The notes: generated from the letters alone by a model not told the origin. A DNA stretch of 64,000 nucleotides from Anaerolineae bacterium (GCA_040768685.1 JAXGMM010000001.1:1322691-1386690); one strand, 5' to 3'; shown: positions 18,358 through 41,680, counted from the stretch's first letter. A program made the numbers and translations.

Positions 18358-18363
18358 TGCGAT

Positions 18364-22495: not shown

Positions 22496-24058
22496 ATGTC
22501 GTCTACTCCTGTACCGGTGCCCCCAAGGCCGCAACTCCGTCTGCGACTCGTGGCGCTCGCTGCGCTGGCACTGAGCGGGCTGCTGCTGACCGGGTGCAGT
22601 GCAGGCGCCCGGCACGTATGCATTGCGGCGGACGGGGAGACCACGTGCGTCGACACGCGCGCCGGCCTCGCTTACGAGGTTCTGCGGGAGGTGGGCATCG
22701 AACTCGGCGAGCTGGACCGCGTCGAGCCGGACTACTGGGCCCCGGTAAGCCCCGGGCTTGAGCTGCGCGTAGTGAGAGTCGTGCACGAGCAGGAAGTGGC
22801 GGAGCAGCCCCTGCCCTTCGAGCGGCGCTTGGTCAAGACGCTCAGCCTTGAACCGGGAGTCAGCAAGCTCCTGCAGGCCGGATCAACGGGAACCGAGGCG
22901 GTGACGTACCTCGTGGTTCTCGAGGACGGCGTCGAGGTACGGCGGGAGCAAGTGCGTGTGGACGTGACCGTACCGCCCCGGGACGAGGTGGTTGCCGTGG
23001 GGATGACCAAGCCCGCCGGCACCGGCGAGTTCGGCGGCACCGTCGCCTACCTCGCCCAGGGCAATGCTTGGGTGCTGCGCGGCGACATGGAGGCCGAGCG
23101 AGCACTCACCGCCACCGGTGACTTGGACGGGCGAGTGTTCGAGTTGTCTCCGGACGGCCGATCGCTCGTGTTCACCCGACGAGTTGTCGAGCCGTCACTG
23201 ACCCTCAACCGGCTCTACGCCGTCTCAACGGAGATGGTCGATCCGGCGGCGGAGGACCTGGGAGCCGTCGGCGTGCTGCGCGCGCGCTGGTCGCCGACCG
23301 GCAACGCCATTGTCTACACCACCGCCGAGGGTACCGAGGGAAGTCCCGGTTGGCGGGCGCGGAACGACCTTTGGCTGCTGAATTGGGTGGATGAGCGGGT
23401 ACCCCGGCAGGTGCTAGAGGAGTCCTGTCTCGGTCCCTACTGTTGGTGGGGTCCCGAGCTGGCATGGGGCCCGTCGGAGGAGCGCCTGTACCTCGCGGAT
23501 GCGTCGGCCGTGTATGAAGTGGACCTCGTGGCTGGAGCCGGGCGGATGGTGGTGGAGTTCGCCCCTGTGCGCACGGGCGGCAACTGGGCCTGGGTTCCTG
23601 AGCTGAGTGTCGTGCCGGGCACCAACGTGGTGGCAATGGCTTGGCCCGCCACCGGCGCCGCCGAGGCTGACCTCACCAGCCGGTTCGACCTGGTAGTCAT
23701 CGACCCTCTAGGCGGCAGCCCCACGGTCCTGGCCGAAGGAGTGGGCATGTGGTCGCGGCCGCGCTACACCAGCCGCCCGGACGGCACCACCAGAGTGGCC
23801 TACGGCGTGGCCGACACCGGGCTTCGTTCATCCGACAGCCCCTACGCTATCTGGACGGCCGATGGCGACGGTACCGAGGCGGAGCGTGCATTCCCGCCGG
23901 CGGCCTCCGGCTCGGTCCTGTATGAGACGGTGTGGTCATCGCCGGGCTACCTGCTGATTGGCGCCGAAGGCGGGCTGTACCTGGTCCGCGCCGACGGGGG
24001 CGGCGTGAGGCCGCTACTTGAGGGGGTGCCCGTCGAGCGGGTTCAGTGGGCGCCATGA
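22496..24058 (+). CDS. Lipoprotein with a DUF348/G5-like N-terminal region and a C-terminal TolB-like (PD40) beta-propeller
   Basis: Signal peptide with lipobox LLTGC. G5-like segment (SKLLQAGSTGTEAVTYLVVLEDGVEVRREQV...VVAVG). Repeated DGRSLVF / SPTGNAIVYTT beta-propeller blades. Confidence 0.55.
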   Translation: MSSTPVPVPPRPQLRLRLVALAALALSGLLLTGCSAGARHVCIAADGETTCVDTRAGLAYEVLREVGIELGELDRVEPDYWAPVSPGLELRVVRVVHEQEVAEQPLPFERRLVKTLSLEPGVSKLLQAGSTGTEAVTYLVVLEDGVEVRREQVRVDVTVPPRDEVVAVGMTKPAGTGEFGGTVAYLAQGNAWVLRGDMEAERALTATGDLDGRVFELSPDGRSLVFTRRVVEPSLTLNRLYAVSTEMVDPAAEDLGAVGVLRARWSPTGNAIVYTTAEGTEGSPGWRARNDLWLLNWVDERVPRQVLEESCLGPYCWWGPELAWGPSEERLYLADASAVYEVDLVAGAGRMVVEFAPVRTGGNWAWVPELSVVPGTNVVAMAWPATGAAEADLTSRFDLVVIDPLGGSPTVLAEGVGMWSRPRYTSRPDGTTRVAYGVADTGLRSSDSPYAIWTADGDGTEAERAFPPAASGSVLYETVWSSPGYLLIGAEGGLYLVRADGGGVRPLLEGVPVERVQWAP

Positions 24059-27051
24059 TGGGGAAACGGCGGCTGGCCGCCCTGGCGCTCATCGCCCTGG
24101 GCGTGCTCGGGGCAGCGCTGGAGATCACGCGCGGAATGGGGGACCCACAAGTCCCGGGCGTGGTCTATGGACTGCCGGTGGCGGTCACTCCCGACGTTGG
24201 GCGCGGGGTCGGCGCCAACGTTGAGCTCATGGGCTGCCCCAAGGAGGAAGCGGAACGCGTCCTCGCCGCTATGGCCGGCAACCGGCTGACCTGGGTGCGG
24301 CAGACGTTCTCCTGGTCTGTGATCGAGCCAGCGCCCGGGGTGTTCGACTGGAAGGCGGCGGACGCTGCTATCGACGCCATCGGCGGGGCCGGGCTGAAGT
24401 TAGTGGCGGTACTGGGTACCAGTCCGTCGTGGGCTCGGCCAGCCGGCCAGGAGGCGGCCGAGTGGAGCCCCCCGGAGGACTTCGCCGACTTTGGCGGCTT
24501 CGCGTCTGCGTTCGCCAGACGCTACGGGGATCGAGTCGACTTCTACCAGATCTGGGATCAGCCCAACATTCACCCGTTCTGGGGAGACCGCTATGTAGAC
24601 CCTGAGGCCTACGGCAGATTGGTCCGGGAAGCCGCGTCGCGCATCCGCGCCGAGGATGCTGACGCGGTGATCCTGCTCGCCGGTTTGGCGCCCAACGTTG
24701 AGGCCGGCCCGCTTAACCTGAACGAGCCGGAGTACTTGCGACGGGTGCTTGCGTCCGGCGCCGGTCCTTTCTTCGACGTGGCGGCCGTCAAAGCCTATGG
24801 CTTTGAGGATGCGGCCGACGACTACCGCCTGGGAGTCGGCGCCCTCAACTTCAGCCGCGCCGCGCTGGTGCACCAGGTCCTCGCCGACGCCGGCCGAGCT
24901 GACACGCCGGTCTGGGCGGTTGAGTTCGGCTGGAACGCCCTCCCGCCGGAATGGCATGGGCGACCTGCCCCGTGGGGCACGGGCGATGTGGACACGCAGG
25001 CGGGGCAGTCGTTAGCTGCGGTGGCGAGGGCACGAACAGAGTGGCCGTGGATGGGCCCTATGATCTGGTCGCGGCTTGTCGCGCCCGCAGACCGCGATGA
25101 CCCCGCCTACGGGTTCGCCCTTCTTGAAGCGGACCTGGCCCCGACCGAGTTGGGACGTCGGCTCCTCCCCGAACTGGGCGCGGACGCGACACCTGCTCTC
25201 GGCCGGCACCGCCCCGACTCGCAGACCGCTCGGTACTCCCCCGGATGGCGCGTGACCTCGCAGGGCGCTGATCCCAGCGCCGCCGGCGACTCAGTCAGCA
25301 TCGTGTTCCAGGGCACCGCACTCGATCTGGTCCTTGCGCCTGGACCGTACTGGGCCACCTGGTCCGTGACGGTGAATGGAGAGCGTTCGGCGGCTCTACC
25401 GGTGTGGAAGGACAGCTCTTACGCTGTGCTCTACGATCCCCTGGGCGAGGCTAGGCGGGTGACCGTTGCCGCCGGGCTGCCGCCGGGCGTGCACGAGGCT
25501 ACTGTCACGGTAGACGGTGGATGGGGTCAGTGGCCTCTGCTCGGCTGGGTCAGTTGGCGGGAGGCGCCGAAGGCGCTCAGTGTCCCGGTTCTGGCCCTCT
25601 GCGCTATCGTGGCGCTTGTGGGGCTCCTGCTGCTTGGCGCTGACGGGCTGCTGCGTGCCGTAGTCCGCCATGTACTGAGGTCGAGCGAGCGCGTTCCTGA
25701 GCCGGCGCTCGCTCTATTGGTGGCCGCTCTCCTGGCGGTGTTCTGGCTGAGCGCCGGGCTCATTCCATCGGCCCTTGCCGGAACCGGCCTGGCCATAGCG
25801 GCATTGGCTGCGCCCCACTGGGTGCTGGCGGCGGCGCTGGCATCGCTTCCCTTCTTCCTCGTGCCCAAGTCGATGCTCGGCATCTCGGTCATGGCGCCGG
25901 AGTTGCTGTCGTGGCTGTTGCTCGTAGGTGTGGCCCTACGCACCTGGGCCACTCTGCCGTCGCCTGACCTTCGCCTTCGGCCGAACCTGCTCGATATCGG
26001 CGTCGCTCTCCTAGTGGCAGCGGCGGCCGTCGCCACTTGGTTCGCGCCTATGCGAGGCGTGGCCCTGCACGACTTTCGGCGCGTGATCCTGAGCGCAGCG
26101 GCGCTCTACACTGGCGCCCGGCTGTTGGGCCGGCCGGCGCTATGGCCGGCACTGATCGGTGTGCTGGCCGGCGCGTCGGTCGCTTCCGCGGCTGGGATCG
26201 GCCAGTATCTTCGGGGCGAGAACCTTATCACCACCGGTGAAGTGGCGCGCGTCCGCGCCTGGTACGGCTCTCCCAATAACCTCGCCCTCTATCTGGGTCG
26301 CGCCATTCCTGTAGGGCTCGGGCTCGTTGTCTTCAGTCGGAGCCGAAGGGTACGCTGGCCGGCGGCCGCAGCGCTGGCGATCTGCCTGGCCTGCGGGATT
26401 CTGACGCGGTCGAGGGGTCTGGTGCTGCTCGGTATTCCGGTGTCCGGCGCCTGGCTTCTCTGGCAGTCCGGCCGGCTGAGGAGTTCGCGGGGAGCCATCG
26501 TTGCGCTAGTGGCTGTGGCGTCTCTGGTGGTAGTCGCGCTGGCGGGCGGCCGCCTTGACCGGCTGGCTAGTGGTCAGGATGAAGCCGCCGGCATGCGCCT
26601 TCACGTGTGGGCGAGCGCCGCGAACATGGTCGCGGATCACCCCGTGCTGGGCGTGGGGCCCGACAACTTCCTGTACCAGTACCGGACACGGTACATCACG
26701 CCTGAGGCCTGGGCCGAGCCCAACCTATCTCACCCCCACAACCTAGTCTTCGACTTCTGGCTTACCGCGGGAGCGGGCGGGCTGGCAGCCCTGGCGATAG
26801 TGGCGGCCGGCGCTGTCCGTAGCGGTCGTCGCGCCATTCGCCACGCTGTAGGGGATGAGAGAGGGGCGTGTCTGGGCGTCGCGGCGGCCCTGATGGCGGC
26901 AACGGCGCAGGGTCTGGTCGACAACTCCTTCTTCCTGGTAGACTTGAGTCACGTCACGCTCGTGTTTCTGGCCCTGCTGGCTGCCCCGGTGCAGGCTGGC
27001 CCCGGGGCCCACTGCAAGCATGGTAACCTGCCTAGGGAGCGGATCCTATGA
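24046..27051 (+). CDS. Fusion protein: N-terminal glycoside-hydrolase clan GH-A TIM-barrel-like domain plus C-terminal multi-TM O-antigen-ligase/Wzy_C domain
   Basis: N-terminal signal anchor. TIM-barrel motifs ([28 protein letters not shown] with the NEP acid/base signature). About 12 TM helices and a Wzy_C-like loop ([17 protein letters not shown]) in the C-terminal half. Confidence 0.6.
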
Positions 27052-27992
27052 GAGTGCTGATCACCGGAGGAGCCGGGTTCATCGGCTCGCACCTGTGCGA
27101 GCTGCTGTTGGAGCGGGACCATGAGGTGGTCGTCATGGACAACCTGCTTACCGGCAGCATCGAGAACGTCAAGGGTCTGTTCGGCAAGCCCGGCTTCACC
27201 TTCGTCAAGTACGATGTCACCAACTACGTGCACGTGCCCGGGCCCGTCGACGCCATTCTTCATCTCGCTTCGCTCCCGAGCCCGGTTGACTACCTCCGCC
27301 TTCCCATTAAGACGCTGAAAGTGGGTGCCTTGGGTACCCACACCACTCTAGGCTTGGCCTGTGCGAAGAAGGCGCGCTACCTGCTCGCCTCCACCAGCGA
27401 GGTATACGGCGACCCGAAAGTTCACCCTCAGCGGGAGGACTATTGGGGTAACGTGAATCCGGTGGGGCCGCGAGGCGTCTACGACGAGTCCAAGCGATTC
27501 GCCGAGGCTCTGACCATGGCCTATCACCGCGCCCACGGACTGGAGACGCGGATCGCCCGCATCTTCAACACCTACGGGCCGCGAATGCGGCTCGACGACG
27601 GGCGCGTCATCCCCAACTTCGTCAAGCAGGCGCTCCTGGGCGAGCCAATCACTGTCTACGACGATGGCACTCGCACCCGTTCATTCTGCTACGTGTCGGA
27701 CCTGGTCGAAGGAATGTACCGGCTGCTGATGTCGGACGAGGTGGACCCGGTCAATCTTGGCAACCCGACCGAAATGACCATGCTGGAACTGGCGGAACGC
27801 GTCCGCGACGTGACCGGGTCCAGCAGCGAGGTCGTGCTGGTCAAGCCCAAGGACGATCGCACCAAGGACGACCCGCAGATGCGGCGCCCGGACATCGGTA
27901 AGGCGCAGCGCATCTTGGACTGGAGTCCGCAGGTGCCGGTAAGCGAAGGACTGCGCTATACGGTGGACTACTTCCGCAGCCGAGTGCGATGA
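27048..27992 (+). CDS. uxs: UDP-glucuronate decarboxylase (UDP-xylose synthase-like, extended SDR)
   Basis: [20 protein letters not shown] catalytic region, full-length UXS-family similarity. Start overlaps the upstream stop (ATGA). Confidence 0.85.
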
Positions 27993-29419
27993 CCTTTTCG
28001 GCGGGAGACGCCTGGCGGCCGCGGCTGGAGCGTGCCGGTCTCACCCTGGGCGGAATAGGCCTGGGCGTGGCGCTGGCCGCTGCCCCTTGGCGCCTGTCGT
28101 TGCTGGTGGCGGGTGCGCCGGCGGCGGTCGTAGGGTTGCTCTTCCCCCATCTGCTGTTGGCGGCCCTCCCGCTGGCCGTTCTTGTCGCCCAGGACTTCTC
28201 GGTGCCCTTCGGCGGCCTGCGGCTAGGTCCGGTGGAGATCCTCGTGGGTGCTTCGGCGATAGCCTGGGCATCAAGAGGGGTGGCGGAGCGGAGACTGGAG
28301 TGGTCGCCGGGGCCGGTCCAGCGCGCGTTACTGGCATGGCTCTGGGTGATCGGGCTCAGTCTCTTGGCGAGCGCCTCTCTCAGCGCTGGTCTCAGTGAGA
28401 CCGCCAAATGGCTGGAGATCCTGCTGCTGGCGGCGATCACGCCGGCGATCGCCGGCGGCGGCCGGGCACGCTATGTCGTCTGGGGCGTGGCGGCCGCCGG
28501 AGTTGTCGCCGCCCTTCTAGGCCTCTACCAGTTCGTGACCGCCTCTGGACCACCGGGATTCATGCTGATGGGTCGATTCATGCGCGCGTATGGTACCTTC
28601 CGACAGCCCAATCCCTACGCGGCGCATCTCGGCCTGTCGCTGCCCTTTGCGGCCGGCTGGGCCCTGGCGGGACCGGTCGGGCGGCGGGAACGGTGGATCC
28701 TTCTGGCCGCTGCCGCCGTGATGGCGATGGGCATCATGGCCAGTTGGTCGCGCGGCGCCTGGCTGGGGCTGGGCGTGTCGGCGGCGCTCATGGCGGCACT
28801 GTTGTGGCCGCGCGTGGCCATAGGGGTGGCCGCACTGGCGCTGATCATCAGTCCTCTGTGGGTCGGACCGGCAGCATCCAGTGCTCTGGCGCAACGAGCC
28901 CTTGGGATGGGCGGCGGCGTCCCGGGCCTGAACGTGGCTCAGGTGGAGCCCACGGATGACAACTGGTCGGTGGTGGAGAGACTTGCACATTGGCAGGCGG
29001 GCTGGCGCATGTTCGAGGCGAAGCCATGGCTGGGGGTTGGCATCGGCAACTATGAGGTGGTCTACGCCTCCTACGGCATACCGCGCTGGTCCGACCCGCT
29101 TGGCCATGCACACAACTACTACTTGAACATCGCGGCGGAGACCGGCCTGATCGGCCTGACGTCCCACGCGGCGCTTGGCCTAGTGGTGTGGATCACTCTC
29201 GCCCGCTCGTGGCGCAGGCGACCCGACAGTCGCTCGCGCGGCCTACTTCTTGCAGGGATAGGAGCACTGGCGTACCTTTCGGTGCACAGCATCGTCGACA
29301 ATCTCTACGTGCACGGCATGCAGGTCCTGGTAGGCTTGGCCCTGGCGGCGCCGGCCTGGGGCTCTGTGGGGGACGCCGCATCCACGCGCGGGGTGGGTTC
29401 ATGCAGATCGGGACTTTGA
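27989..29419 (+). CDS. O-antigen ligase / Wzy_C-family polytopic membrane protein (second copy)
   Basis: About 11 TM helices, Wzy_C-like periplasmic loop ([14 protein letters not shown]...[17 protein letters not shown]). ATGA overlap with uxs. Confidence 0.7.
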
Positions 29420-29892
29420 TGTCGCGCCCGGAGCGGCGGCGCGAAGTGGGCCGTTTCCTGAAGTTCGCCACCGTCGGAACGCTCGGCGCGGTGATAGACT
29501 ACGGCCTGCTCAACTTGCTGATTCTTGCCGGAGGAATGCCCAAGTTCTGGGCCAACTGCTGCTCGTTTACGGCGGCAGTGCTCAGCAACTTCGTGTGGAA
29601 TCGCCTCTGGACATTCCCGGAGTCCCGCGAGCGCCCCGTGGGGTCCCAACTTCTGCAGTTCGCCGTGATCAACATCATCGGGCTGGCCATCAACCAGGCC
29701 ATTTTCCTTTCGGTAGATCACCTGGTGCTCGGTGAAGGGGGAGTGTGGTCCCTGCTGACGCTACAGCTATCGTCGCTTCTGGGGATCGCGGCGCCCGTGG
29801 TGGCTTACAACCTCTCTAAGGCCTGCGCCACCGTTGTGGCCCTCTTCTGGAACTTCGGCGGCAACCGGTTGGTAACCTATCGGGGACTCTAG
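29401..29892 (+). CDS. GtrA-family small membrane protein (putative lipid-linked sugar flippase component). Start re-assigned to the internal ATG.
   Basis: FLKFATVGTLGAVIDYGLLNLLI GtrA signature, 4 TM helices, 163 aa. Confidence 0.75.
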   Translation: MQIGTLMSRPERRREVGRFLKFATVGTLGAVIDYGLLNLLILAGGMPKFWANCCSFTAAVLSNFVWNRLWTFPESRERPVGSQLLQFAVINIIGLAINQAIFLSVDHLVLGEGGVWSLLTLQLSSLLGIAAPVVAYNLSKACATVVALFWNFGGNRLVTYRGL

Positions 29893-29896
29893 ACCC

Positions 29897-31631: not shown

Positions 31632-34350
31632 CGGAGTCCGTCGGCGACGCGGCCCCCGCGACGGTCACCGGCGCCCTGGGCATTCCCGGTTCTTCAGGCA
31701 GATACCAGCCGACCTCGAACGCGTAGCGGCCGGCCCCAAGCTCGAGGGGCAGGGCCAGCTCGAACTCCGCCCGGACCACCTCACCCCCCAGCCATCCGGC
31801 CGTCGGCCGTCCCGGCGGCGTCCCCTGCGCCTGAGCGAGCACCCTTCCTTCGGCGCTGAGAAGGTGCAGGAACACGGCGTAGTTGCGGTCCGGCGTGAAC
31901 ACGGCCTTGAAGACGAGTTCGATGTGCAGCGTGTCCCCCGCCGACGCCTGAGTGGGCTCAACGTTGAGGCCGACGAGTTCCGCCATCCCGCCGATCATGG
32001 CGCCGGAGGGGAACGAGGTAGTCACGTCGGAGTAGTCTCGCATCACGGGCGCGACCTGCAGCGTGCATACGGTGAAGTCGTCAGCCGCCTCAGCATCCCC
32101 GGAGACCCGCAATCGCAGCGACGTCTGCCCATCTGCGGCGTCCGCCGGGACTCTCCCGTCCAGCCACACAAGATGCACGGAGTCTGCGTCAGCCGGTCGG
32201 GAACCGACGGGCAGCGCCACCTCGCCCGCCGGTCGCTCTCCGTCGTCGCCGACCAGCACCGCCGCCAGAGTGGTACGTCCCGGCGCAGCGTCCGGCGCCA
32301 CCGACAGGAGCATCGGCAGCGCGAAGTCGACCCCGGGGAACAGCGGTTCCGTCGGGCAGGCCCCAAGAGCGATCACCGTGGTACCCGCCCACCCAGAGTG
32401 GTCGACCGGCAGAAGCCCGTGCTCCGCGGCCGCCGCGGTTGCGTCAACGCCGGCCGTGTTGCCGGCGAGACTCAGCACGCCCAGCGAGCAGGTCTGTCCG
32501 GCTGGATTACCGGCTTCGTCGAGGACGTCCCGAGGGCGGCCCGAATCGGCCTCGTACAGGGTGACGGAGGCAGTGTAGTCGCCCTCCGCTACTCCAGCGG
32601 GAGTACGGGGATCGAGCCTGACGAACGCGACCCGGCTGGGAGCCCACCGACTGGTCGGGTAGCCGTCACCGCCGGGCGCCAGGTGCACGCGTGTGACCTC
32701 GTGGCCACGGGAGTCACTGATGGTGACCTGGACGCGCAGATCGAGTGCCAAGGGCCGGAGTGCCCGCCACAGCAGGGCGACGTTGCCGGCTTTGTCCGGC
32801 GCCAGGCCAAGGTACTCGATCCCGCCCTCGAACCGACAGACGGGCGTACGGTCGGTTGAGGCGAGCTCCGGCAGGTTCGAGGAGCCGTCGAGACGATAGT
32901 GGCGCGTGCGCACATGCCAGTAGCCTCGCTCCTCGCCGACTGCAACCTGGTCGAGCAGGAAGGGAACCGATCCCATCGGGTCCACTACCTCGTCCTGCCA
33001 GAGCAGCAGCCACGTCCCGGAAGCACCCTCCAGGGCCACGCGAAGATCGTCAGCCACGTTGAGGCCAAGCGACGAGTCTACGTCCAGCACGCGCAGCTTC
33101 GGGAGCGGAACGTAGGGGATGGTGGGCGCATAGTACTCCCACACCGGGTACAGGTGGCCGGAGACCAACAGCACGACCTCGTCGGGCTCCATTTGGGCGC
33201 CGATGTCGGCGACGGCGGACCGGAAGTCGGCTCGCGTCAGCCGCTGGTCTACGAACATCCCCCTGATGCCGGCGCCGGAACCCAACACGACCGCGCCGAG
33301 CGCAACCGCCCCGATCCAGCTCCCACCTCTTGCCGGCTTCCGCCACAGAGGCGAGACCGCCTGACCCCACAGAAGGGGCAGGGGAAGCGAGGCGAGCACA
33401 AGGTAGCGCGGGTTGAACTTGGGGACCACCAGGAACACGGCCAAAGTCGCTACCAAGGTGGCCACCAGAATGCTGAGCGGCCAGAGCGAGGTCCTGGAGC
33501 GGTTGGCCACGAGAGCGACTGCCAGGACGGCGGCCATAGCGACCGCCAGGTAGACGCCCGTGCTTTCCAGGACCGTTTCGCCCGGGCCGCCAACGAAAAG
33601 CGCCACCAGCACCTTGCGGAGTGCCTCGTCGAGCTTGAGGCTGCCGACGAAATAGGAGGTGTCACTTCGCATAGTGCGCAGGGCGGCCGGCATCCAAGGA
33701 ATGAACAGGAGGGCGGCCGGCAGAAGACCCCGGTACAGATAGCGCGGCAGAAGCCGCCTGCCCTGCGATGGACGAGACGACCAGACCATCGACAGCAGGT
33801 GGGCGACCACGAGGCCCGCCCCCAGGTAGTGAGTGTAGAGAAGGGCGGCATACCCCAGCGCGAGGGTAGCATCGGACTTCCATGAGCGCTCAAAGCCACG
33901 ACCCTCCCAGGCGAGAAGAGCCAGGGTGGCGGCCGCGCCCGTCAGGAGGAGAAGGCTGTACATGCGCGCGTCTTGGGCGTGCCAGACGTACCAGGGATGG
34001 ATGGCGACCACGAGAGCGGCCACCGGCGCGGCATCCTCCAGGCGGAGACGTCTGGCCAGCCGGTACATCAGAGGCACGAGGACCACGGACAACATGACCG
34101 AGAGGAACCGAAGCGAGAACTCGGAGTTGCCGGCAACTGAGGCCCACGCCTTCAACAGCAGGTAATAGAGCGGCGGCTGCACGTCCGCAGCCGTCCAGGC
34201 CAGCATTTCGCGTAGCGGAAGGCCCGCGAGATAGGCGCTGACGGCCTCGTCGTAGGAGAGGCTTTGGACGGGCAGATGGTAGACGCGCAGGGCAAAGGCA
34301 GCGGCTACGAGAGAGAGTGCGGTAAGATGAGTTCGCCGGTGCATACTCAT
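31603..34350 (-). CDS. GT-C-fold glycosyltransferase of the PMT/ArnT-like (GT39/GT83, PMT_2) type, with a roughly 550-aa extracytoplasmic C-terminal region built of repeated beta-sandwich-like modules
   Basis: N-terminal YDEAVSAYLAGLP...DVQPPLYYLLLKAW motif typical of PMT_2/ArnT-like enzymes, about 11 TM helices, long C-terminal soluble domain. Confidence 0.7.
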   Translation of the reverse strand: MSMHRRTHLTALSLVAAAFALRVYHLPVQSLSYDEAVSAYLAGLPLREMLAWTAADVQPPLYYLLLKAWASVAGNSEFSLRFLSVMLSVVLVPLMYRLARRLRLEDAAPVAALVVAIHPWYVWHAQDARMYSLLLLTGAAATLALLAWEGRGFERSWKSDATLALGYAALLYTHYLGAGLVVAHLLSMVWSSRPSQGRRLLPRYLYRGLLPAALLFIPWMPAALRTMRSDTSYFVGSLKLDEALRKVLVALFVGGPGETVLESTGVYLAVAMAAVLAVALVANRSRTSLWPLSILVATLVATLAVFLVVPKFNPRYLVLASLPLPLLWGQAVSPLWRKPARGGSWIGAVALGAVVLGSGAGIRGMFVDQRLTRADFRSAVADIGAQMEPDEVVLLVSGHLYPVWEYYAPTIPYVPLPKLRVLDVDSSLGLNVADDLRVALEGASGTWLLLWQDEVVDPMGSVPFLLDQVAVGEERGYWHVRTRHYRLDGSSNLPELASTDRTPVCRFEGGIEYLGLAPDKAGNVALLWRALRPLALDLRVQVTISDSRGHEVTRVHLAPGGDGYPTSRWAPSRVAFVRLDPRTPAGVAEGDYTASVTLYEADSGRPRDVLDEAGNPAGQTCSLGVLSLAGNTAGVDATAAAAEHGLLPVDHSGWAGTTVIALGACPTEPLFPGVDFALPMLLSVAPDAAPGRTTLAAVLVGDDGERPAGEVALPVGSRPADADSVHLVWLDGRVPADAADGQTSLRLRVSGDAEAADDFTVCTLQVAPVMRDYSDVTTSFPSGAMIGGMAELVGLNVEPTQASAGDTLHIELVFKAVFTPDRNYAVFLHLLSAEGRVLAQAQGTPPGRPTAGWLGGEVVRAEFELALPLELGAGRYAFEVGWYLPEEPGMPRAPVTVAGAASPTDSVILGWIDVG

Positions 34351-36710
34351 TCGGCCCCCGTTGCTGCGCTGATCTGCACCTTGCCGAGGACTATGCTCGG
34401 GTTGCAGGAGAAGGGAGCCGCCGTCTCGTGATCGTAGGGTATCGCGACGACCTCATACTCGCCGGATCCGAGGCTGCTGGACAGAGACAGCGCCTTGACG
34501 TCGGGGACTACCTCGCCAGGCGGCCAGTAGGCAGGGGGATAGAGGCCCTGCTGAACCGGCCCATCCAGTTGGGCGAGGACTTCGCCGTGCGCTCCAACCA
34601 TGCGGATCGACAGGGACAACCCTGCGGTAGGCGCGTCCGTGCGGCTCCAGTACGAGGTGATCCTCAGGCTGTCCCCGGCGGAGGCTGTGTTGGTCACCTC
34701 GGCACCCCGGTACTGCAGCCAGCTCGCGCAAGTGACTGTTGGCGTCCCGCCCGAAGGGGCGGATGCCGCTAGTGGGGCGAGCGCCGGTCTGAGTCCCTGT
34801 CGGATCCTTTGGACGGGGGGCAACCGAACCAAGTTCGTCTCGCCGATGGCCGGTACGGCCCCGTCCGAACTAGGGACCAGCCGGGCGGCAACCTGATCGT
34901 AGTCGCCGTCCACAACCACGCCCACGTATGCTCCCCAGGAGTCTCCCAGAGCGGTCGCCACGGTAGTTGTGATCCAGGTGTCGCCGGGCGTCCACTGGCT
35001 GACCGGCACCCAGTACGTCTCCAGGAAAGGCATAGATCGGCTGTCGGCAACGATCTGGCCGCGTCCATCGACCAACACGGTGTACGGTGCGAGCGACGGG
35101 CTCACCGGGCCAACAGCCTGCCAGTGCAGCCGCAGGGACGTGTAGCCCCACTTGGGGTCGTCGAGCCAGTCGTAGCCCGCCAGACGAAGGCTGGCGCCGA
35201 ACTGGACGTTCGCTATGTGGGTCGGTTCCTGCTTCGCTAAGGTGAAAGCGTAGAAGCTGTCTGGCGGGCTTCCATTGGCCTCTCCGCGGCGGAGCAGCAC
35301 CATCCCGTCCTCACCATCGACCACCCCGTATCCGGAGGCTAGCAGTTCGTCGACACGGGCACGCACATCGGCCGGGTGCATGTCGGTTGTGCCGGCGATG
35401 TCCAGCAAGACATACTCGGCGTCAGCAAGGTCGGGGAAGGTATAGATCCGCTCACGGTGGCTGAAGTGCGGGTGCAGCGCTGGGGTGACAGAGAGCGAGG
35501 CGTTCGCCGGAATCTGGTCGGCGAACGGCGCCAGCGCATCTGCGCGCGCCCCGGTTGGTCTGTGCAGGTAGTACTGTGGACCGAATGGGGTGAACCCCTC
35601 AGCAACCTGGTAACCGACCGGGAAGACAGCCAGGACCAGCAGCACGACAACGGGCAGACGGCGGTGAGCACGGCCGGTCCAGCGGAGGAGCCGACACGCG
35701 CCGACCCCGGCGGCAATAGCCAGGACCGACATGAACGGGGCACTGTAGTGGAACTCGCCGGAGAACTGGGCGTCGTAGTGGCTGAGGACGTTGGCCGCCA
35801 CCAAGGGGGCAGCCGCCAGTGCCACCTCGGGAGCCAAGAGAGGCATGAACCCGAAGGCGGCCAGAAGGCCCAGCATGTAGGCGAGCCGATCGGCCGAAAC
35901 GGCCCGTGCGGCGATCGCGGCTATGTTGGACAGAGGACTGCCCGAAGCAGTTGACTCGGACCCTTTATAGCGGGCTAGGTAGGGCATTGTGGCCTCGCCG
36001 TAGGCCTCGACGCTGTAAGAAGGGATGATGACCAGCGTGGCGAGCGCGAACCAGGCGACGGCCGCCACGGTCACGCCGTAGCCGGGCTTCCAGCGCGAGG
36101 TAACTGCCAACAGCAGGGCCACCGCGGCCACGACCAGCGCGATCTCCTCCTTAACGGCAATAGCAGCCGCGGCCGCCACTAGGGCCGGCCCCGTTCTCCG
36201 CCTCCGTCCGAGCAGGAGGAGCAGGGCGAGCGGCAGGGTCGCCAGCGGCGCGGCGTGGAAGTCGGCGACGGTAGCTGCCTGTACCTGGGGGGCCAGCAGG
36301 TAGGCCAGCGCTGCCCAGGTAGCCGCGATCGCTCCAAGCCGCGAGGCCCTGCCCGGCCACCAGGCCGCCACGGCGCCCCAGATCATCAAAGCCGAAAGAC
36401 CGATCACCAGCGCCTGCAGCGAAAGGAGCGCTCTCGCGTCGTCCCACAGCCCGAAGACCACCGCTACCGGCCAGAAAACCGGCTCGATGTGATCGGTCAG
36501 CCGCGTGCTGATGACCTCGCCTTTCACCTCTTGGACGAAACGCCCGTGGAGAGTGTTCCAGATGGCCAGGTCGATCTGGCCCAAGTCGGCGGTGTGCGTC
36601 ATGAGGCCATCGTGCCTCTCGATGGCGAACCAGGCGAAGAAGGCCACGAACGCGACAGTCCCGACGGCCGCCAGGACGAGCAGCCGGTGTTGGAGGCGAA
36701 GGCTTGTCAC
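34347..36710 (-). CDS. DUF2079-family polytopic membrane protein (predicted GT-C-like) with a C-terminal repeat-module domain
   Basis: N-terminal multi-TM region with DUF2079-like signature (HTADLGQIDLAIWNTLHGRF). C-terminal modules share the GxY...GxY pattern with the neighbouring GT-C. ATGA overlap with the upstream gene. Confidence 0.55.
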   Translation of the reverse strand: MTSLRLQHRLLVLAAVGTVAFVAFFAWFAIERHDGLMTHTADLGQIDLAIWNTLHGRFVQEVKGEVISTRLTDHIEPVFWPVAVVFGLWDDARALLSLQALVIGLSALMIWGAVAAWWPGRASRLGAIAATWAALAYLLAPQVQAATVADFHAAPLATLPLALLLLLGRRRRTGPALVAAAAAIAVKEEIALVVAAVALLLAVTSRWKPGYGVTVAAVAWFALATLVIIPSYSVEAYGEATMPYLARYKGSESTASGSPLSNIAAIAARAVSADRLAYMLGLLAAFGFMPLLAPEVALAAAPLVAANVLSHYDAQFSGEFHYSAPFMSVLAIAAGVGACRLLRWTGRAHRRLPVVVLLVLAVFPVGYQVAEGFTPFGPQYYLHRPTGARADALAPFADQIPANASLSVTPALHPHFSHRERIYTFPDLADAEYVLLDIAGTTDMHPADVRARVDELLASGYGVVDGEDGMVLLRRGEANGSPPDSFYAFTLAKQEPTHIANVQFGASLRLAGYDWLDDPKWGYTSLRLHWQAVGPVSPSLAPYTVLVDGRGQIVADSRSMPFLETYWVPVSQWTPGDTWITTTVATALGDSWGAYVGVVVDGDYDQVAARLVPSSDGAVPAIGETNLVRLPPVQRIRQGLRPALAPLAASAPSGGTPTVTCASWLQYRGAEVTNTASAGDSLRITSYWSRTDAPTAGLSLSIRMVGAHGEVLAQLDGPVQQGLYPPAYWPPGEVVPDVKALSLSSSLGSGEYEVVAIPYDHETAAPFSCNPSIVLGKVQISAATGAE

Positions 36711-37693
36711 GCCGGCCCCCGGTTACGGGGCGACCATACCAGGGAACGATTGGTCCCCAGCGCCACGGCCGCCGCCAGCAACTCGGCGACCGTCAGCCAC
36801 AAACGGGCCGCCAGCGCCGCCACGCCGGCAACACCGGCGCCGGCCACCGGCGCCAGCAGCAGGGCCAGCACACCCTCGCGCACGCCCACGCCGCTGGGTG
36901 TGAGGAGCGATAGGTAACCGGCGACATAGGAGGCGGGGAAGGCGGAGGCCCAACCGATGAGGTCGCCGCTGTTCGCGCCGAGCGCTCGTCCAAGCGACCA
37001 GAACGCCGTTCCGAGCCCAACCCAGTAGAGGCAATAGCCGAGCAGAATGAGGGCGAGGGGCGCCTGCGAAAGACGGACCTGGCCGGAAGGTGGACGGGCA
37101 ATGGGCGTCAAAACGCGGCTCAGACGGGTCAACGTCCACGGACTGAGACCGAAGGCAACTACCGCTAGCCCAACGGCCACGCCCGTCAGCCAAGTAGCGC
37201 GGGAGGCGCCAAGCGCCGACACGAGAGCGGGCACGCCGATCAAGACGCCGGTGGCGTTGGTGAGGACCTGGTGCGCGGCCACGCTGGCCAGGATCGCTCC
37301 CCGCGGCACACCGCTGTCCGCGCCGAGCTCCATCATGCCGACGAACTGCCATATCCTGCCCGGTACATAGCGCGCCAGGTTCGAGAGGAACCACACGCCT
37401 GCCGCCCGGCGCAGGGGAAGCTCGTGGCCAAGCTCGAGGAGCAGGCGCCGCCAAAGGGCCACCTCAAGAAGCATGCAGGGAAACAGGCCGAGGATGCTGA
37501 CGCCCAGCCAGTTCCAGCTAAGCTGAAGACGGAAGGCACGGATGTCGGCGGAGTAGGCGCGTAGTACGGCGGCCAAGAAGCCCAAACTGAGGATGATGAA
37601 CGCCATACGGAGCCAGGGGTTGGCCGACAGGCGTCGCAGGCGGTCCAGGACGGCCGCACCTCGGGCGCTCCAGATCCGTGGGCTGGCGTCCAT
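36707..37693 (-). CDS. UPF0104 / lysylphosphatidylglycerol-synthase-TM-domain-like membrane protein (flippase-like). Start re-assigned to MDASP.
   Basis: 8 TM helices, LSNLARYVPGRIWQF motif typical of the LPG_synthase_TM (flippase-like) family. The tracked 485-aa ORF has a spurious 157-aa N-terminal extension overlapping the GT4 gene. Confidence 0.6.
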   Translation of the reverse strand: MDASPRIWSARGAAVLDRLRRLSANPWLRMAFIILSLGFLAAVLRAYSADIRAFRLQLSWNWLGVSILGLFPCMLLEVALWRRLLLELGHELPLRRAAGVWFLSNLARYVPGRIWQFVGMMELGADSGVPRGAILASVAAHQVLTNATGVLIGVPALVSALGASRATWLTGVAVGLAVVAFGLSPWTLTRLSRVLTPIARPPSGQVRLSQAPLALILLGYCLYWVGLGTAFWSLGRALGANSGDLIGWASAFPASYVAGYLSLLTPSGVGVREGVLALLLAPVAGAGVAGVAALAARLWLTVAELLAAAVALGTNRSLVWSPRNRGPA

Positions 37694-37697
37694 GCCC

Positions 37698-38924
37698 CTA
37701 CGGAGCCGTAGAGCGGCCGGCTGCGATGCGCTCGAAGTGCTCCAGGTAGCGAGCCGCCAGATGGCTCCAGGCGAACTCGGCCTCCACCCGCCGGCGTCCT
37801 GCCTGGCCCATGCTGCGCAAACGGCGGCGATCGCTGTAGAGGCGTGCCAGGGCGTCGGCGATAAGGTCGGCGCGGCGCTCCGGGACGAGGTAGCCGTTGT
37901 GCCCGTCCTCGACGACCAGCGGATTGCCGGCGACCGTTGTCGCCACAATCGGCAGGCTGCACGACATGGCGTCGAGAACGCACACGTTGAGGCCGTCCTC
38001 CGGCTCGGTGACCGAGGGCATGGCCAGCACATCGGCGGCACTGTAGTAGGCGACGATCTCGTCCCGCGGCACGGCGCCGACGAACTCCACTGCCGAGCGC
38101 ACACCCATCGCCGAAGCCATGCGCTCCAGGTTGGCGCGCTCGTTGCCGTCGCCGATGAGCACAACGCGAGCGGTAGGCACGCGCGACAGCAGCCGGGGGA
38201 GCGCCTGAATCAGGTAGCGGAACCCCTTCTTCGGCACCATGCGGCCCACGCCGAGGATGGCGAAGTTGCCCGGGCTGAGGCCCAACTCGCGCCGCTTCTC
38301 CTCGCCGGCCAGCGGGTCCGCTCGCATCGCGTCGGGGTCGACGCCGTAAACGATCAGATCGAAGCGGCCTTCGTCGGCGCCCAGCGTCAACGCCACGTCG
38401 CGCAACTCGTGGCTGTTGGCCGTCACCAGACTGGAGTGGCGGAGTGCGTAGCGGGCCAGAGCCCTTGTGACTGGGTTGAGCCGGGCAACCAGCAGATCGG
38501 ACCCTGGCAGCGAAGTGGCCAGCGGGACGCCGGTCATCTTGCTGATGGCGGCGCCGATGAGGCCGTTGGGAACCAGCCAATGGGCGTGAATCACGTCGGG
38601 TTTCCATTCGCGGGCGATTCGCCTGCCCGCCGCTGCCCCGGCAGCCAAGCTCGCCGGCGCTGCCAGCAGGCTGGCACGCTTGGGGCGCAGGTCGCCTTCC
38701 ATGCTCCGCATGTAGCCGACGGTCTCAAAGGCCGCCGGCCCGTAGCGGTAGAGGTCAAGAACGTATGGGCGTTCCATAGGCGGGCCGTATGCGGCGTCAT
38801 GAGGGGCAAGGACACGCACCGCCGCACCCTTGCCGACCATGGCTGCGGCCAAGGCATCAATGAACGTCCCGCTGAAGTCCCCGGGGAACCGGGGAAGGTT
38901 GTGGGTGAGGAGCAGCACTTTCAT
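37698..38924 (-). CDS. Glycosyltransferase family 4
   Basis: MKVLLLTHNLPRFPGDFSGTF N-terminus and C-terminal GT4 region. Confidence 0.85.
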   Translation of the reverse strand: MKVLLLTHNLPRFPGDFSGTFIDALAAAMVGKGAAVRVLAPHDAAYGPPMERPYVLDLYRYGPAAFETVGYMRSMEGDLRPKRASLLAAPASLAAGAAAGRRIAREWKPDVIHAHWLVPNGLIGAAISKMTGVPLATSLPGSDLLVARLNPVTRALARYALRHSSLVTANSHELRDVALTLGADEGRFDLIVYGVDPDAMRADPLAGEEKRRELGLSPGNFAILGVGRMVPKKGFRYLIQALPRLLSRVPTARVVLIGDGNERANLERMASAMGVRSAVEFVGAVPRDEIVAYYSAADVLAMPSVTEPEDGLNVCVLDAMSCSLPIVATTVAGNPLVVEDGHNGYLVPERRADLIADALARLYSDRRRLRSMGQAGRRRVEAEFAWSHLAARYLEHFERIAAGRSTAP

Positions 38925-38927
38925 GGC

Positions 38928-39902
38928 CTATGTCCGGTCCCGCCGACGAATCTCGACCATGAGCGCATCTAGCTGCTCTGTCTGCGCCACAATGAGTTCC
39001 GCGAGAAAGCCGACTAAGAACAGCAACAATCCGGCGGCGATCAGCACTAACGAGAGGCTGAAGAGCGGGCGAACTTGGGTCCGCTCCAGCAGGTAGTACA
39101 GCGCCAGCAAGACACCCAGAAGCGCCCCCAGGGCCTCGCAGGCCAGCCCCAGGCCGCCGAAGAAGAGCATGGGTCTGCGGCTGAAGGTGAGGAGGAACTT
39201 GACCACCAGGACGTCGAGGAACGAACGCGGTATGCGGCCGATGCCGAACTTGGAGCGGCCCTGGCGTCGGGGTTGGTACGATGTCTTTACCTCGCCGACG
39301 CGGTACCCGTGGGCAGCGGCGATCACCAGGATGAAGCGGTGCCAGTCGGAGCGTAGGGTGATGTCCTCCAGCACTTCCCGCCGGAAGGCCTTGATCCAGT
39401 TCATGTCATGGGCATCGACGCCGAACAGCCGGGCCGAGACCCAGTTGTATACCCGGGACGCCGGCACCTTGCCGTCCTTACGGCCCTGGCGCCAGCCGGA
39501 AACCACATCGTACCCTTCTTCCAGTTTGCGGAGCAGGGCCGGCACGTCGATCTCCGGGTCCGACTCAAGGTCCGCCGGTATGAAGACGACGGTGTCGCCG
39601 CGCACGGCGCTGAATCCGGTCCGCATAGCCTCGGTGAGGCCGCGGTTGTGGCGGTGTCGCAGAACCCTCAGCCACGGGTACCGGGAGCACGCCTCTTGAA
39701 GGAGCTCGCCGGTGCCATCGGTCGAGCCATCGTCGACGATTACCGCTTCTGCCGGAAGCGCCAGAGCCGTCAGGGTGCGGTCTAGCTTCTCCAGCAAGAG
39801 CGGTATGTTGCCCGCCTCGTTGTAGGCAGGGGCAAACACCGATACGGCCACCGGAGTGCTGCCGGACTCCATGTCGCTATACGACCTTAGTCCCTCAGGC
39901 AC
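38928..39902 (-). CDS. GT2 polyprenyl-phosphate sugar synthase (GtrB / ArnC / DPM1-like) with two C-terminal TM helices
   Basis: VFAPAYNEAGNI, VDDGSTDGT, DxD-like (FIPADLESD) motifs; C-terminal TM pair as in GtrB/ArnC. Confidence 0.85.
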   Translation of the reverse strand: MPEGLRSYSDMESGSTPVAVSVFAPAYNEAGNIPLLLEKLDRTLTALALPAEAVIVDDGSTDGTGELLQEACSRYPWLRVLRHRHNRGLTEAMRTGFSAVRGDTVVFIPADLESDPEIDVPALLRKLEEGYDVVSGWRQGRKDGKVPASRVYNWVSARLFGVDAHDMNWIKAFRREVLEDITLRSDWHRFILVIAAAHGYRVGEVKTSYQPRRQGRSKFGIGRIPRSFLDVLVVKFLLTFSRRPMLFFGGLGLACEALGALLGVLLALYYLLERTQVRPLFSLSLVLIAAGLLLFLVGFLAELIVAQTEQLDALMVEIRRRDRT

Positions 39903-41005
39903 GCCAGCAGCTGTTCGGCAACGAACTCCACCTGTTCTGGCTGCAACTCGGCGTACATCGGCAGGCTGAGGACGCTATCGGCCAGACTCTCGGACACCGG
40001 CAGGCTCCCCCGGCGATGGCCCAGATCGGAGAAGGCCGGCTGGAGGTGCACCGGAAGCGGGTAGTGGATGCCGGTGGCTATGCCCACCTCGGCCAGCTGC
40101 CTCTGAATCCGCTCTCGGGACTGAGGGGGCACGCGGACGATGTAGAGATGGTAGACCGGTTCGGCCCAGGCCGCCGGCTTTAGCGGGACGGCGGCCGAAC
40201 CTGCGAGGAGGGCGTCGTAGTGGGCGGCGTGCTCGCGACGGCGCTGGTTCCAGTCGTCCAGGTGGCGCAGCTTCACCCGCAGGACCGCCGCCTGCAGCGC
40301 GTCCATTCGGTCGTTGCCGCCGACCTGCGAGTGCTCGTATTTGCTGCCCGGGTTGCGTCCGTGATCGGCGATCATGCGCACGGCCGCGGCGATGTCGGGG
40401 TCATTCGTCACGATCGCTCCGGCGTCACCGTAGGCGCCCAGGTTCTTGCCGGGGTAGAAGGAGAAGCAGGCCACCCGACCCAACGAGCCGACGCGCCGAC
40501 CCCGGTGCCGTGCGCCGTGCGCCTGGGCGGCGTCCTCGATGAGCGTGAGTGCGTAACGATCACAGAGGTCAAGAAGCGGATCGAGGTCGGCGGGGTGGCC
40601 GTAAAGGTGCACCGGAAGGAGGGCCCGCGTGCGGCCGGTGATGGCCATAGCCGCCTGCTCCGCATCCATCCCACCAGTGGTGGATGTCGCGTCCACCAGC
40701 ACCGGCGTGGCCCCCACCTGGGCGATGGCCTCGGCCGTGGCCACGAAGGTGTTGCTGCAGGTGATCACCTCGGCGCCGTGGCCAAGGCCGCAGGCTCGCA
40801 GGGCGAGCGCCAGGGCTGATGTGCCGGAAGAGACGCCGACGCAGTAGGCCGCCTCGCAATAGGCGGCGAACTCGGCCTCAAAGGCGGCCAACTCCGGCCC
40901 ACCTATGAACCGGGTGCTGTCGAGGACGCCCTGGATGGCTGCATCCATCTCGTCCTTGATGGAGCGGTACTGCGCGCCCAAGTCCACCAGGGGGATCTGC
41001 GTCAT
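39887..41005 (-). CDS. DegT/DnrJ/EryC1/StrS-family PLP-dependent nucleotide-sugar aminotransferase (ArnB/WbpE-like)
   Basis: Family-typical sequence throughout, including FSFYPGKNLGAYGDAGAIVTND with the PLP-lysine. Confidence 0.9.
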   Translation of the reverse strand: MTQIPLVDLGAQYRSIKDEMDAAIQGVLDSTRFIGGPELAAFEAEFAAYCEAAYCVGVSSGTSALALALRACGLGHGAEVITCSNTFVATAEAIAQVGATPVLVDATSTTGGMDAEQAAMAITGRTRALLPVHLYGHPADLDPLLDLCDRYALTLIEDAAQAHGARHRGRRVGSLGRVACFSFYPGKNLGAYGDAGAIVTNDPDIAAAVRMIADHGRNPGSKYEHSQVGGNDRMDALQAAVLRVKLRHLDDWNQRRREHAAHYDALLAGSAAVPLKPAAWAEPVYHLYIVRVPPQSRERIQRQLAEVGIATGIHYPLPVHLQPAFSDLGHRRGSLPVSESLADSVLSLPMYAELQPEQVEFVAEQLLACLRD

Positions 41006-41017
41006 GGTCGCCTCCGT

Positions 41018-41680
41018 CTAGCGTTCATCGAGACTGTCATAAGGCGAGGTCATCAGCCCGTAGGGGCAGGTGAGCAGGTCGACACTGCGAACTACTCGAG
41101 CCGGGTTCCCCGCCACCACCATCCGGGCGGGGACGTCGTGCGTCACCACGGACGCCGCCCCCACCAGTGCCATCTCGCCGACCTCAAGGTCGGGCAGGAG
41201 GGTGGCGTTGGCTCCGATCTTAGCTCCTCGACGGATCCGCGGTCCGCGCAGACACTCCTTCGCGCGGGGGCAGAGCGGGTGCAGGGCGTTGGTGAAAGTC
41301 ACGTGCGGGCCGACCCAAGCATCGGCTTCCAGGAGGGAGTACTCGGGTATGAAGGCCCCGGAGTGAATGCGGACGTGGTCGCCGATCTCCACATGGTGCT
41401 CGATGACGGTGTGTGACCCGATGCTGACCGAATCGCCGACGCGATTGAACTCGCGCAAAAGGGCGCCATGGCCGCTCTGGAACCCAGCGCCGATGACGTT
41501 CCCGGCGTAGATCACGGTGTGGGAGCGGATCACGCTGTTGGCCCCAATGACGGTCGGGTGCTCTCCGGGGGCCGCTCCTCGCGGGGGGCTGCCCAGCACC
41601 ACGTACTCACCCACGGTGACTCCGTCGGCGAGTTGCACGTTCGGGTGTACCACAGCCGTGGGATGCACGCAGGTACCCAT
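41018..41680 (-). CDS. Left-handed beta-helix (hexapeptide-repeat) sugar N-acetyltransferase (PglD/WbpD-like). Start re-assigned to MGTCVHP.
   Basis: Hexapeptide repeats (VHPNVQLADGVTVGEYVVLG, IGANSVIRSHTVIYAGNVIG ...). The tracked ORF has a spurious 148-aa N-terminal extension. Confidence 0.8.
   Translation of the reverse strand: MGTCVHPTAVVHPNVQLADGVTVGEYVVLGSPPRGAAPGEHPTVIGANSVIRSHTVIYAGNVIGAGFQSGHGALLREFNRVGDSVSIGSHTVIEHHVEIGDHVRIHSGAFIPEYSLLEADAWVGPHVTFTNALHPLCPRAKECLRGPRIRRGAKIGANATLLPDLEVGEMALVGAASVVTHDVPARMVVAGNPARVVRSVDLLTCPYGLMTSPYDSLDER

Follow-up and report, generated by a model that had tools for sequence, protein, structure and literature searches.

The window analysed here is the entire 64,000-nucleotide (nt) stretch JAXGMM010000001.1:1322691-1386690 of an Anaerolineae bacterium (GCA_040768685.1; Chloroflexota), and its subject is a cluster of 14 genes at positions 22496-41680 that is predicted to assemble an envelope glycoconjugate. 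The genes lie on two convergent strings, module A on the plus strand and module B on the minus strand. Protein families were assigned by using Pfam and NCBIfam profiles, searches against Protein Data Bank (PDB) sequences, and a hydropathy scan of the translations. A prior description made from the DNA alone (hereafter the sequence-only reading) had named gene families on both strands. Each of those calls was confirmed by Pfam, one plus-strand membrane protein being left without a family, and the open reading frame (ORF) coordinates matched. That description had started the locus at 24046; the plus string begins one gene earlier, at 22496, with a G5/DUF348 gene. The features of the two strings are as follows.

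22496-24058, plus strand: predicted lipoprotein with DUF348, G5 and a C-terminal beta-propeller-like region, first gene of the plus module (Pfam G5 E 2.8e-17; weak DUF348 and PD40)
24055-27051, plus strand: fusion of an N-terminal transmembrane (TM) anchor, an extracytoplasmic PslG-like (GH39-like) TIM barrel with beta-sandwich, and a C-terminal Wzy_C membrane domain (Pfam, AlphaFold2, Foldseek)
27048-27992, plus strand: UDP-glucuronate decarboxylase, i.e., UDP-xylose synthase (UXS) (Pfam Epimerase/GDP_Man_Dehyd; human UXS1 in the PDB)
27989-29419, plus strand: second Wzy_C-family membrane protein (Pfam Wzy_C E 3.8e-22)
29401-29892, plus strand: GtrA-family small membrane protein, start ATG 29401 or 29419 (Pfam GtrA_DPMS_TM PF04138 E 2.7e-24)
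29897-31018, plus strand: cytoplasmic GT4 glycosyltransferase, GT4a (Pfam Glycos_transf_1 E 7e-31; nearest solved relative MshA, 83 bits)
31005-31631, plus strand: lineage-restricted membrane protein of 208 amino acids (aa), predicted to span the membrane about five times (an equally long gene occupies this position in every orthologous locus)
31603-31631, no strand: 29-nt 3'-end overlap of the convergent strings, which leaves no room for a terminator (ORF coordinates and sequence)
31603-34350, minus strand: GT-C glycosyltransferase, PMT_2/GT39-like, 915 aa (Pfam PMT_2 E 2.8e-11)
34347-36710, minus strand: DUF2079 protein, 787 aa, with a GT-C fold and carbohydrate-binding-like beta-sandwich domains at the C-terminus (Pfam DUF2079)
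36707-37693, minus strand: UPF0104/LPG_synthase_TM protein of the MprF flippase-domain family ('PplT'), 328 aa (Pfam PF03706 E 2.3e-14)
37698-38924, minus strand: cytoplasmic GT4 glycosyltransferase, GT4b, immediately upstream of UPF0104 (Pfam Glycos_transf_1 E 1.9e-37)
38928-39902, minus strand: GT2 polyprenyl-phosphate glycosyltransferase of the ArnC/GtrB/DPMS type (Pfam Glycos_transf_2 E 5.5e-28)
39887-41005, minus strand: DegT-family pyridoxal phosphate-dependent sugar aminotransferase (Pfam DegT E 2e-118)
41018-41680, minus strand: left-handed beta-helix N-acetyltransferase of the QdtC/FdtD/WlbB class, first gene of the minus module (Pfam Hexapep E 2.5e-21)

Neighbouring genes within each string are joined by 4-nt ATGA or GTGA overlaps, by other overlaps of 1-19 nt, or by gaps of 3-12 nt, and are translationally coupled; the G5 gene and the fusion gene, for example, overlap by ATGA. 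The tight coupling and the overlapping convergent ends proposed in the sequence-only reading were both borne out. In the orthologous loci the convergent 3' ends overlap likewise, by 13-107 nt according to the gene calls (positions 5212-5230 in L001, 11105-11117 in L003 and 12753-12784 in L005). Given this overlap between the GT-C gene and the gene for the orphan membrane protein, the two transcripts must be antisense to each other at their ends, and mutual interference between them is possible. Probable starts were refined to ATG codons at 24055 for the fusion, 29401 or 29419 for GtrA, 31005 for the orphan membrane protein, 37693 for UPF0104 and 41680 for the acetyltransferase; before this refinement the ORFs extended over 24046-27051 (1001 aa, fusion), 29188-29892 (GtrA), 36707-38164 (UPF0104) and 41018-42127 (acetyltransferase).

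Comparison of gene neighbourhoods in relatives, which the sequence-only reading had proposed, showed that the same 14 genes recur in the same order and orientation in Anaerolineae metagenome-assembled genome (MAG) contigs whose GT-C orthologs are 35-57% identical to those of the window. Whole-locus synteny extends over at least six Anaerolineae MAG lineages, and retention of a 14-gene order at such identities is more than chance would produce. Where GT-C identity falls to 35% or less, the only matches were GT-C paralogs on contigs that lack the locus. Every named homolog of the GT-C, DUF2079 and fusion proteins belongs to an uncultured member of the Chloroflexota, most often an Anaerolineae MAG. 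Outside the cluster, the Ldh_2, aspartate aminotransferase and isoleucyl-tRNA synthetase (IleRS) genes that flank it are syntenic in the orthologous loci as well; the locus is therefore native, yet synteny alone is no proof that the two strings cooperate. Horizontal acquisition was considered and rejected, given these syntenic flanks and a G+C content equal to theirs (about 66% across the window, without a compositional break at the locus).

We read the region as a conserved, native envelope glycoconjugate assembly locus of Anaerolineae made up of two tail-to-tail modules, with a rough probability of 0.6. The most likely role of the cluster is that a cell-surface sugar polymer is built or decorated by means of lipid-carried sugars.

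The centre of this reading is a set of proteins of the kind that handle polyprenyl-phosphate sugars. The GT2 aligns with ArnC over residues 19-288, near full length (99 bits), and scores 73 bits against DPMS and 70 against GtrB; the alignments with all three take in the juxtamembrane and first TM region. Two C-terminal TM helices are predicted at about residues 250-268 and 283-301, in agreement with the GtrB/ArnC-like GT2 with a C-terminal TM pair recognised from the sequence alone. Its NCBIfam scores (ArnC 101 bits, cut-off 529; PgfS 90) fall below both equivalog cut-offs, which would leave it and ArnC in a common superfamily only. A GtrA-type protein had likewise been recognised, and PF04138 matches it at 86 bits (cut-off 26), with orthologs called at 163 aa; its gene and that of the GT2 lie on opposite strands.

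The locus holds two GT-C enzymes, the PMT_2 and DUF2079 proteins. The sequence-only reading had counted three GT-C paralogs; a third, PMT_2-family gene does exist, far outside the locus at 60080-62098 (minus strand, 672 aa). Many further PMT_2 relatives were seen in Chloroflexota during the GT-C homolog search, some of them on contigs without the locus. The identification of the PMT/ArnT-like protein as a GT-C was upheld by its Pfam PMT_2 match and by the sequence S30-L-S-Y-D34-E35 directly after TM1, which is invariant in 10 orthologs and puts Y-D-E in the first outer loop. An acidic residue occupies the first outer loop of the DUF2079 protein as well, D42 being invariant in 40 homologs. Searches of PDB sequences with the DUF2079 profile gave no match, and a comparison of profiles between its membrane domain and PMT_2 gave none either; the GT-C membrane fold of DUF2079 was recognised by structure comparison alone. 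The C-terminal domains of the two proteins, within an extracytoplasmic region of about 550 aa in the PMT_2 protein, are homologous (hhalign 98.6%) and resemble carbohydrate-binding modules. Profile searches placed neither the GT2 in a soluble family nor the GT-Cs among unrelated transporters.

A second flippase-like component is coupled to the DUF2079 gene. In many Chloroflexota UPF0104 and DUF2079 form one polypeptide (e.g., P0144, P0155, P0164 and Candidatus Amarolinea aalborgensis), and the two gene products are therefore functionally linked. UPF0104 corresponds to the MprF flippase domain, for which fusions to glycosyltransferases are widespread, among them fusions to Chloroflexi GT-B enzymes (10.1101/2022.03.11.483950). 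Operons that join a GT4 to a UPF0104 flippase make, and probably flip, glycolipids (PMC12713373), and in archaea an AglD-like GT2, UPF0104 and a PMT/STT3-like protein are genomically linked (Makarova et al. 2015, PMC5898192). A literature search found no paper mentioning DUF2079 and nothing relevant on Chloroflexi envelope glycosylation.

The sugar-nucleotide enzymes indicate what might be carried. Judged by its relatives, the short-chain dehydrogenase/reductase (SDR) at 27048-27992 is a true, orthodox UDP-xylose synthase, scoring 357 bits (E 1.3e-105) against human UXS1 and about 110 bits (E 1e-31) against ArnA, with 108 bits to the NCBIfam ArnA model (cut-off 777). The aminotransferase scores 369 bits against PDB entry 7b0d, 363 against DesV, 316 against QdtB, 274 against WbpE and 172 against ArnB, and reaches 211 bits with the NCBIfam ArnB equivalog, for which the cut-off is 631; by these alignments it is closest to the C3-aminotransferases DesV, QdtB and WbpE, not to ArnB. 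The acetyltransferase begins directly with its hexapeptide repeats and scores 140 bits against QdtC, 81 against an FdtD-like enzyme, 69 against WlbB and 33 against VioB. Enzymes of the QdtC, FdtD and WlbB types acetylate C3 amines.

The gene that would supply the aminotransferase probably lies outside the cluster. An extended SDR (11823-12833, plus strand) is 65% identical to L063:13473-14498 and 60% identical to the corresponding SDR of L064, both of which lie between DUF2079 and DegT. The Ca. Amarolinea DegT, which stands beside DUF2079, is 49% identical to the DegT of the window, and the SDR there shares only 29% identity with the UXS of the window. Since DegT in other Chloroflexota adjoins an SDR of the 11823 type and not UXS, the SDR at 11823-12833 is the probable partner of DegT, encoded in trans. 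In its family an Asn is aligned with the catalytic Tyr of the Y-x3-K motif (V-N-G-I-N-K, vs V-Y-D-E-S-K in UXS). A Gfo/Idh/MocA gene at 15838-16845 was weighed as a 3-dehydrogenase feeding DegT and not adopted; its nearest matches are inositol dehydrogenases, with WlbA-like entries at only 64-67 bits. Divergent from the SDR at 11823 stands a minus-strand group at 7847-11453 consisting of one GT9 heptosyltransferase-like gene and two GT4 genes, which may belong to the same glycan pathway.

Module A carries the envelope proteins. A lipobox, L-T-G-C, occupies residues 31-34 (Cys34) of the G5 protein, which is probably a lipoprotein; its gene is syntenic in every orthologous locus (L001, L003, L005, L006 and L009). 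A signal peptidase II gene is present in the window at 46352-47149. In the fusion protein, Pfam finds Wzy_C at E 2e-20 and, weakly, Glyco_hydro_42 at E 2e-6, and in Foldseek the N-terminal domain, taken from an AlphaFold2 model (pLDDT 89), matches PslG (5bx9) at E 8.5e-17 with a TMt of 0.65. The domain thus has the TIM-barrel fold of a retaining GH-A glycoside hydrolase of the PslG/GH39 type and lacks one of the two glutamates expected of it. By motif and spacing, as opposed to structural superposition, the acid/base Glu of the W-[ND]-E-P-N motif is replaced by Gln169, and E290 stands at the nucleophile position. Gln is found at the acid/base position in eight of the nine closest homologs as well as in the window; both presumed catalytic glutamates are kept in only 12 of 40 fusion homologs, one being replaced in the other 28. 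The loss of a catalytic Glu in most homologs suggests that in most fusions the PslG-like domain is probably a glycan-binding or altered-function module. The architecture occurs in about 117 clusters, of which all the named ones are from Chloroflexota.

Both Wzy_C proteins retain G-x-G-x-G ... H-x-H-N, in the second as G-x-G-x-G-N-Y ... H-A-H-N. BLASTP detected no similarity between the second protein and the Wzy_C domain of the fusion, and the notion that the two are recent paralogs was rejected on that ground. The two GT4 enzymes, GT4a and GT4b, are only 27% identical. The NCBIfam GlcN_PG_synth model (cut-off 480) gives 55-60 bits, with GT4b at 55. The orphan membrane protein matched no Pfam or NCBIfam family, and a search of 1.84 billion proteins retrieved only 24 representatives at E<=1e-3.

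What has been shown so far concerns protein families, folds and motifs and the coupling, synteny and fusion of genes; from the families and gene links, together with literature precedents, we infer the following mechanism. In module B, the aminotransferase and the N-acetyltransferase would produce a nucleotide-activated acetamido sugar, probably a 3-acetamido sugar. The ArnC/GtrB-type GT2 would load a sugar, possibly this one, on polyprenyl phosphate at the inner membrane face, and the cytoplasmic GT4b would make a lipid-linked primer. UPF0104, with its MprF-type flippase domain, would move a lipid-linked species outward, and GtrA may also take part in flipping. On the outer face, the DUF2079 and PMT_2 proteins would then transfer sugars, each having an acidic residue in its first outer loop. 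In module A, the UDP-xylose synthase, GT4a, GtrA and the two Wzy_C proteins would polymerise or ligate a glycan that probably contains xylose. The acceptor is, as our preferred guess, a lipid-anchored glycan or wall polymer, and the two modules may share a product.

A narrower and tentative proposal is that DUF2079 and UPF0104 act as a flippase-coupled GT-C that builds a Chloroflexota-specific lipid-anchored glycan or secondary wall polymer. A glycolipid made by a GT4 would first be flipped, and polyprenyl phosphate would then deliver the acetamido sugar that extends it on the outside. Under the same tentative proposal, the fusion of a PslG-like pseudo-hydrolase with Wzy_C would represent a novel type of polymerase or ligase that holds glycan through a domain of its own.

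The cores of the two strings recur separately in more distant Chloroflexota, and the locus is therefore composed of two separable modules. The order [GT4]-UPF0104-DUF2079-SDR-DegT is found in Ca. Amarolinea aalborgensis and in the distant contig L064, where GT4, UPF0104 and DUF2079 follow the same order as in the window; the amino-sugar enzymes are thereby tied to DUF2079. About 5 kb downstream of this string in L064, at 18055-19548, lies a GT-C gene of the MptA_B family, the family of mycobacterial lipomannan mannosyltransferases. On contig L066 a fusion gene whose product is 39% identical to that of the window is followed directly by a UXS of 68% identity, a pairing in a distant lineage that ties UDP-xylose to the Wzy_C fusion; another distant fusion gene stands alone. 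About 4 kb downstream of the L066 pair (17486-18478) there is a Glycos_transf_4 initiating transferase of the WecA/MraY type, and none is found near the fusion of the window. In six other contigs (L021, L023, L040, L045, L046 and L052, from Caldilineaceae and other Chloroflexota MAGs), a PMT_2 paralog is preceded, at a distance of about 5 kb, by a DegT gene with a GT2 gene directly after it, which may be a simpler arrangement of amino-sugar enzyme, GT2 and GT-C.

Several points weigh against the reading of the region as one glycoconjugate locus. Each module occurs alone in other Chloroflexota, and the adjacency of the two may reflect general genome stability, since the flanking housekeeping genes are syntenic too. 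The locus contains no keto-sugar-forming enzyme for DegT; the candidate SDR is 27 kb away and is without the catalytic Tyr. The C3 regiochemistry proposed for DegT and the acetyltransferase would follow solely from the ranking of their solved relatives. GT4b is about equally near to PimB' (96.5 bits), BshA (94) and MshA (91.5) among solved relatives. Two Wzy_C proteins would fit a Wzx/Wzy-dependent pathway; an initiating phosphoglycosyltransferase, a Wzx (MOP) flippase, an ABC exporter and a chain-length regulator were not found in the locus or among the Pfam-scanned ORFs of the window, although the initiating transferase, Wzx and chain-length regulator possibly lie elsewhere in the genome. 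With no initiating transferase, Wzx or exporter, the substrate of the two Wzy_C proteins is unexplained.

The best-surviving alternative is that two independent systems adjoin, as neighbours only through stable gene order: module A would make a polymer that contains xylose, and module B a glycolipid or decoration unrelated to it. The separate occurrence of each module or its core in more distant Chloroflexota and the equally syntenic Ldh_2, aspartate aminotransferase and IleRS genes speak for it. We nevertheless consider it rather unlikely, because GtrA is in module A while its usual partner, a GT2 of this type, and both GT-Cs are in module B, and because every orthologous locus retains the overlap between the 3' ends of the strings.

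Protein O-glycosylation is a less probable explanation still. On this account the PMT_2 protein (and DUF2079) would attach monosaccharides, taken from polyprenyl phosphate, to Ser/Thr residues in secreted proteins, Wzy_C would be PglL-like, and the G5 lipoprotein or an S-layer would be the target. It draws on the PMT_2/PMT Pfam matches together with the D-E motif typical of protein O-mannosyltransferases, on the exported lipoprotein gene that heads the plus string, and on the Wzy_C family, which includes O-oligosaccharyltransferases. Against it, the carbohydrate-binding-like C-terminal domains of both GT-Cs favour a glycan over a protein acceptor, the PslG-like domain also favours a polysaccharide, and the conserved GT4-UPF0104-DUF2079 linkage fits a lipid-linked substrate.

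The Arn-like branch put forward in the sequence-only reading, spelled out here as a route in which UXS would supply a UDP-4-keto-pentose (UXS enzymes do pass through a 4-keto-pentose intermediate), DegT would aminate C4, the hexapeptide enzyme would N-acetylate, the GT2 would load polyprenyl phosphate and the GT-Cs would transfer, is very improbable: ArnC is the best-scoring solved and NCBIfam relative of the GT2, and a decarboxylase-family SDR, DegT and a PMT_2/ArnT-superfamily GT-C are all present, but the SDR is far nearer to UXS1 than to ArnA, DegT and the acetyltransferase are of C3-amine type, DegT adjoins a different SDR elsewhere in the phylum, UXS belongs to the opposite operon, accompanies the Wzy_C fusion in L066 and is absent from orthologous locus L005 (which keeps DegT, acetyltransferase and GT2), no formyltransferase, ArnD or ArnE/F domain was found in the 14 genes, and every NCBIfam Arn equivalog cut-off is missed. 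What stands of the overall interpretation offered by that reading is therefore the polyprenyl-phosphate GT2, the GtrA protein and the GT-C; the Arn-like branch and the count of three GT-Cs do not. The likeness to the Arn system (PmrHFIJKLM, lipid A aminoarabinose) lies in a DegT, an N-acyl step, an ArnC-like GT2, a flip and a PMT_2/ArnT-superfamily GT-C in the same chemical order, with UXS here in place of ArnA.

Other described systems resemble a conserved glycoconjugate locus of this kind in part. Like the three-component systems GtrA/GtrB/GtrC of Shigella and Salmonella phages, CsbB/GtcA/YfhO and PgfS/PgfM1/PgfM2, the locus encodes a GT2 with C-terminal TM helices, a GtrA-family protein and a GT-C whose first outer loop carries an acidic residue. 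Unlike them, it has two unrelated GT-Cs with a common sugar-binding-like C-terminal domain, a second flippase-like protein (UPF0104) that is fused to a GT-C in relatives, and GtrA on the opposite strand, and it adds amino-sugar enzymes, two GT4s and two Wzy_C proteins. We know of no described O-antigen or teichoic acid in this organism. In actinobacterial lipomannan/lipoarabinomannan assembly, and in the PpgS/Rv3779 decoration of arabinogalactan with galactosamine, a GT4 similarly primes a lipid, a GT2 makes a polyprenyl-phosphate sugar and several GT-Cs act outside. Here, in a different phylum, no Pim, Mpt, Emb or Aft ortholog passes its family cut-off, Wzy_C is present, and the sugars would be an acetamido sugar and xylose, so the likeness is one of logic, not of orthology.

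The same holds for gpgSDF (GlcN-PG of Pseudomonas aeruginosa) and hexSDF of Clostridioides difficile, in which a GT4 is also directly upstream of UPF0104 (PMC12713373); the present locus has no deacetylase, and its flippase-like protein is coupled, elsewhere fused, to a GT-C. With the archaeal AglD-like neighbourhood (PMC5898192) it has in common a linked triad of GT2, UPF0104 and a GT-C-like membrane protein, but UPF0104 is fused to the GT2 there and to the GT-C in the relatives of this locus, which is bacterial and gave no evidence of N-glycosylation. At its N-terminus the fusion has a membrane-anchored domain with the fold of PslG from the Psl exopolysaccharide system, and its C-terminal domain bears the Wzy_C signature of Wzy/WaaL/PglL, including H-x-H-N. 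Unlike in those proteins, the two are joined here, one of the hydrolase glutamates is replaced in the majority of homologs, and Gln169 marks this clade.

Signals for expression were sparse. One promoter-like site (41690-41718, minus strand) consists of TTGCCG, 17 nt and TATCAT, and ends 9 nt before the acetyltransferase ATG. A promoter consensus scan yielded 2 sites against 1.1 expected, which is barely above background and weak evidence. Ahead of both strings a -10-like hexamer (TAACAT or TATCAT) is located 6-9 nt before the ATG (22470-22498 and 41680-41718); if these consensus matches are used, hexamers so close to the start would yield leaderless or near-leaderless mRNAs. Terminator-like sites were no commoner than in shuffled sequence, an Rfam scan of the window gave zero matches, and a repeat scan of the locus gave chance-level matches only. 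Elsewhere in the window, a LuxR-type helix-turn-helix-Kelch fusion (48298-49698) adjoins a tyrosine recombinase gene (49688-50590) and appears unrelated to the locus.

The newly noted features are the UPF0104-DUF2079 fusion, the C-terminal domain common to both GT-Cs, the Gln in the PslG-like domain and the separable modules. They overturn no known mechanism, and their value is in the generation of hypotheses. The envelope of Chloroflexota, and of Anaerolineae in particular, is poorly understood, and to our knowledge these bacteria lack lipopolysaccharide or teichoic acid genes that would account for the polymers on their surface. DUF2079 gains a fold, GT-C, and a likely partner, the MprF-type flippase domain, and a widespread PslG-like/Wzy_C fusion with decayed hydrolase residues is brought to notice. 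The locus as a whole provides a concrete, conserved candidate gene set for a Chloroflexota surface polymer.

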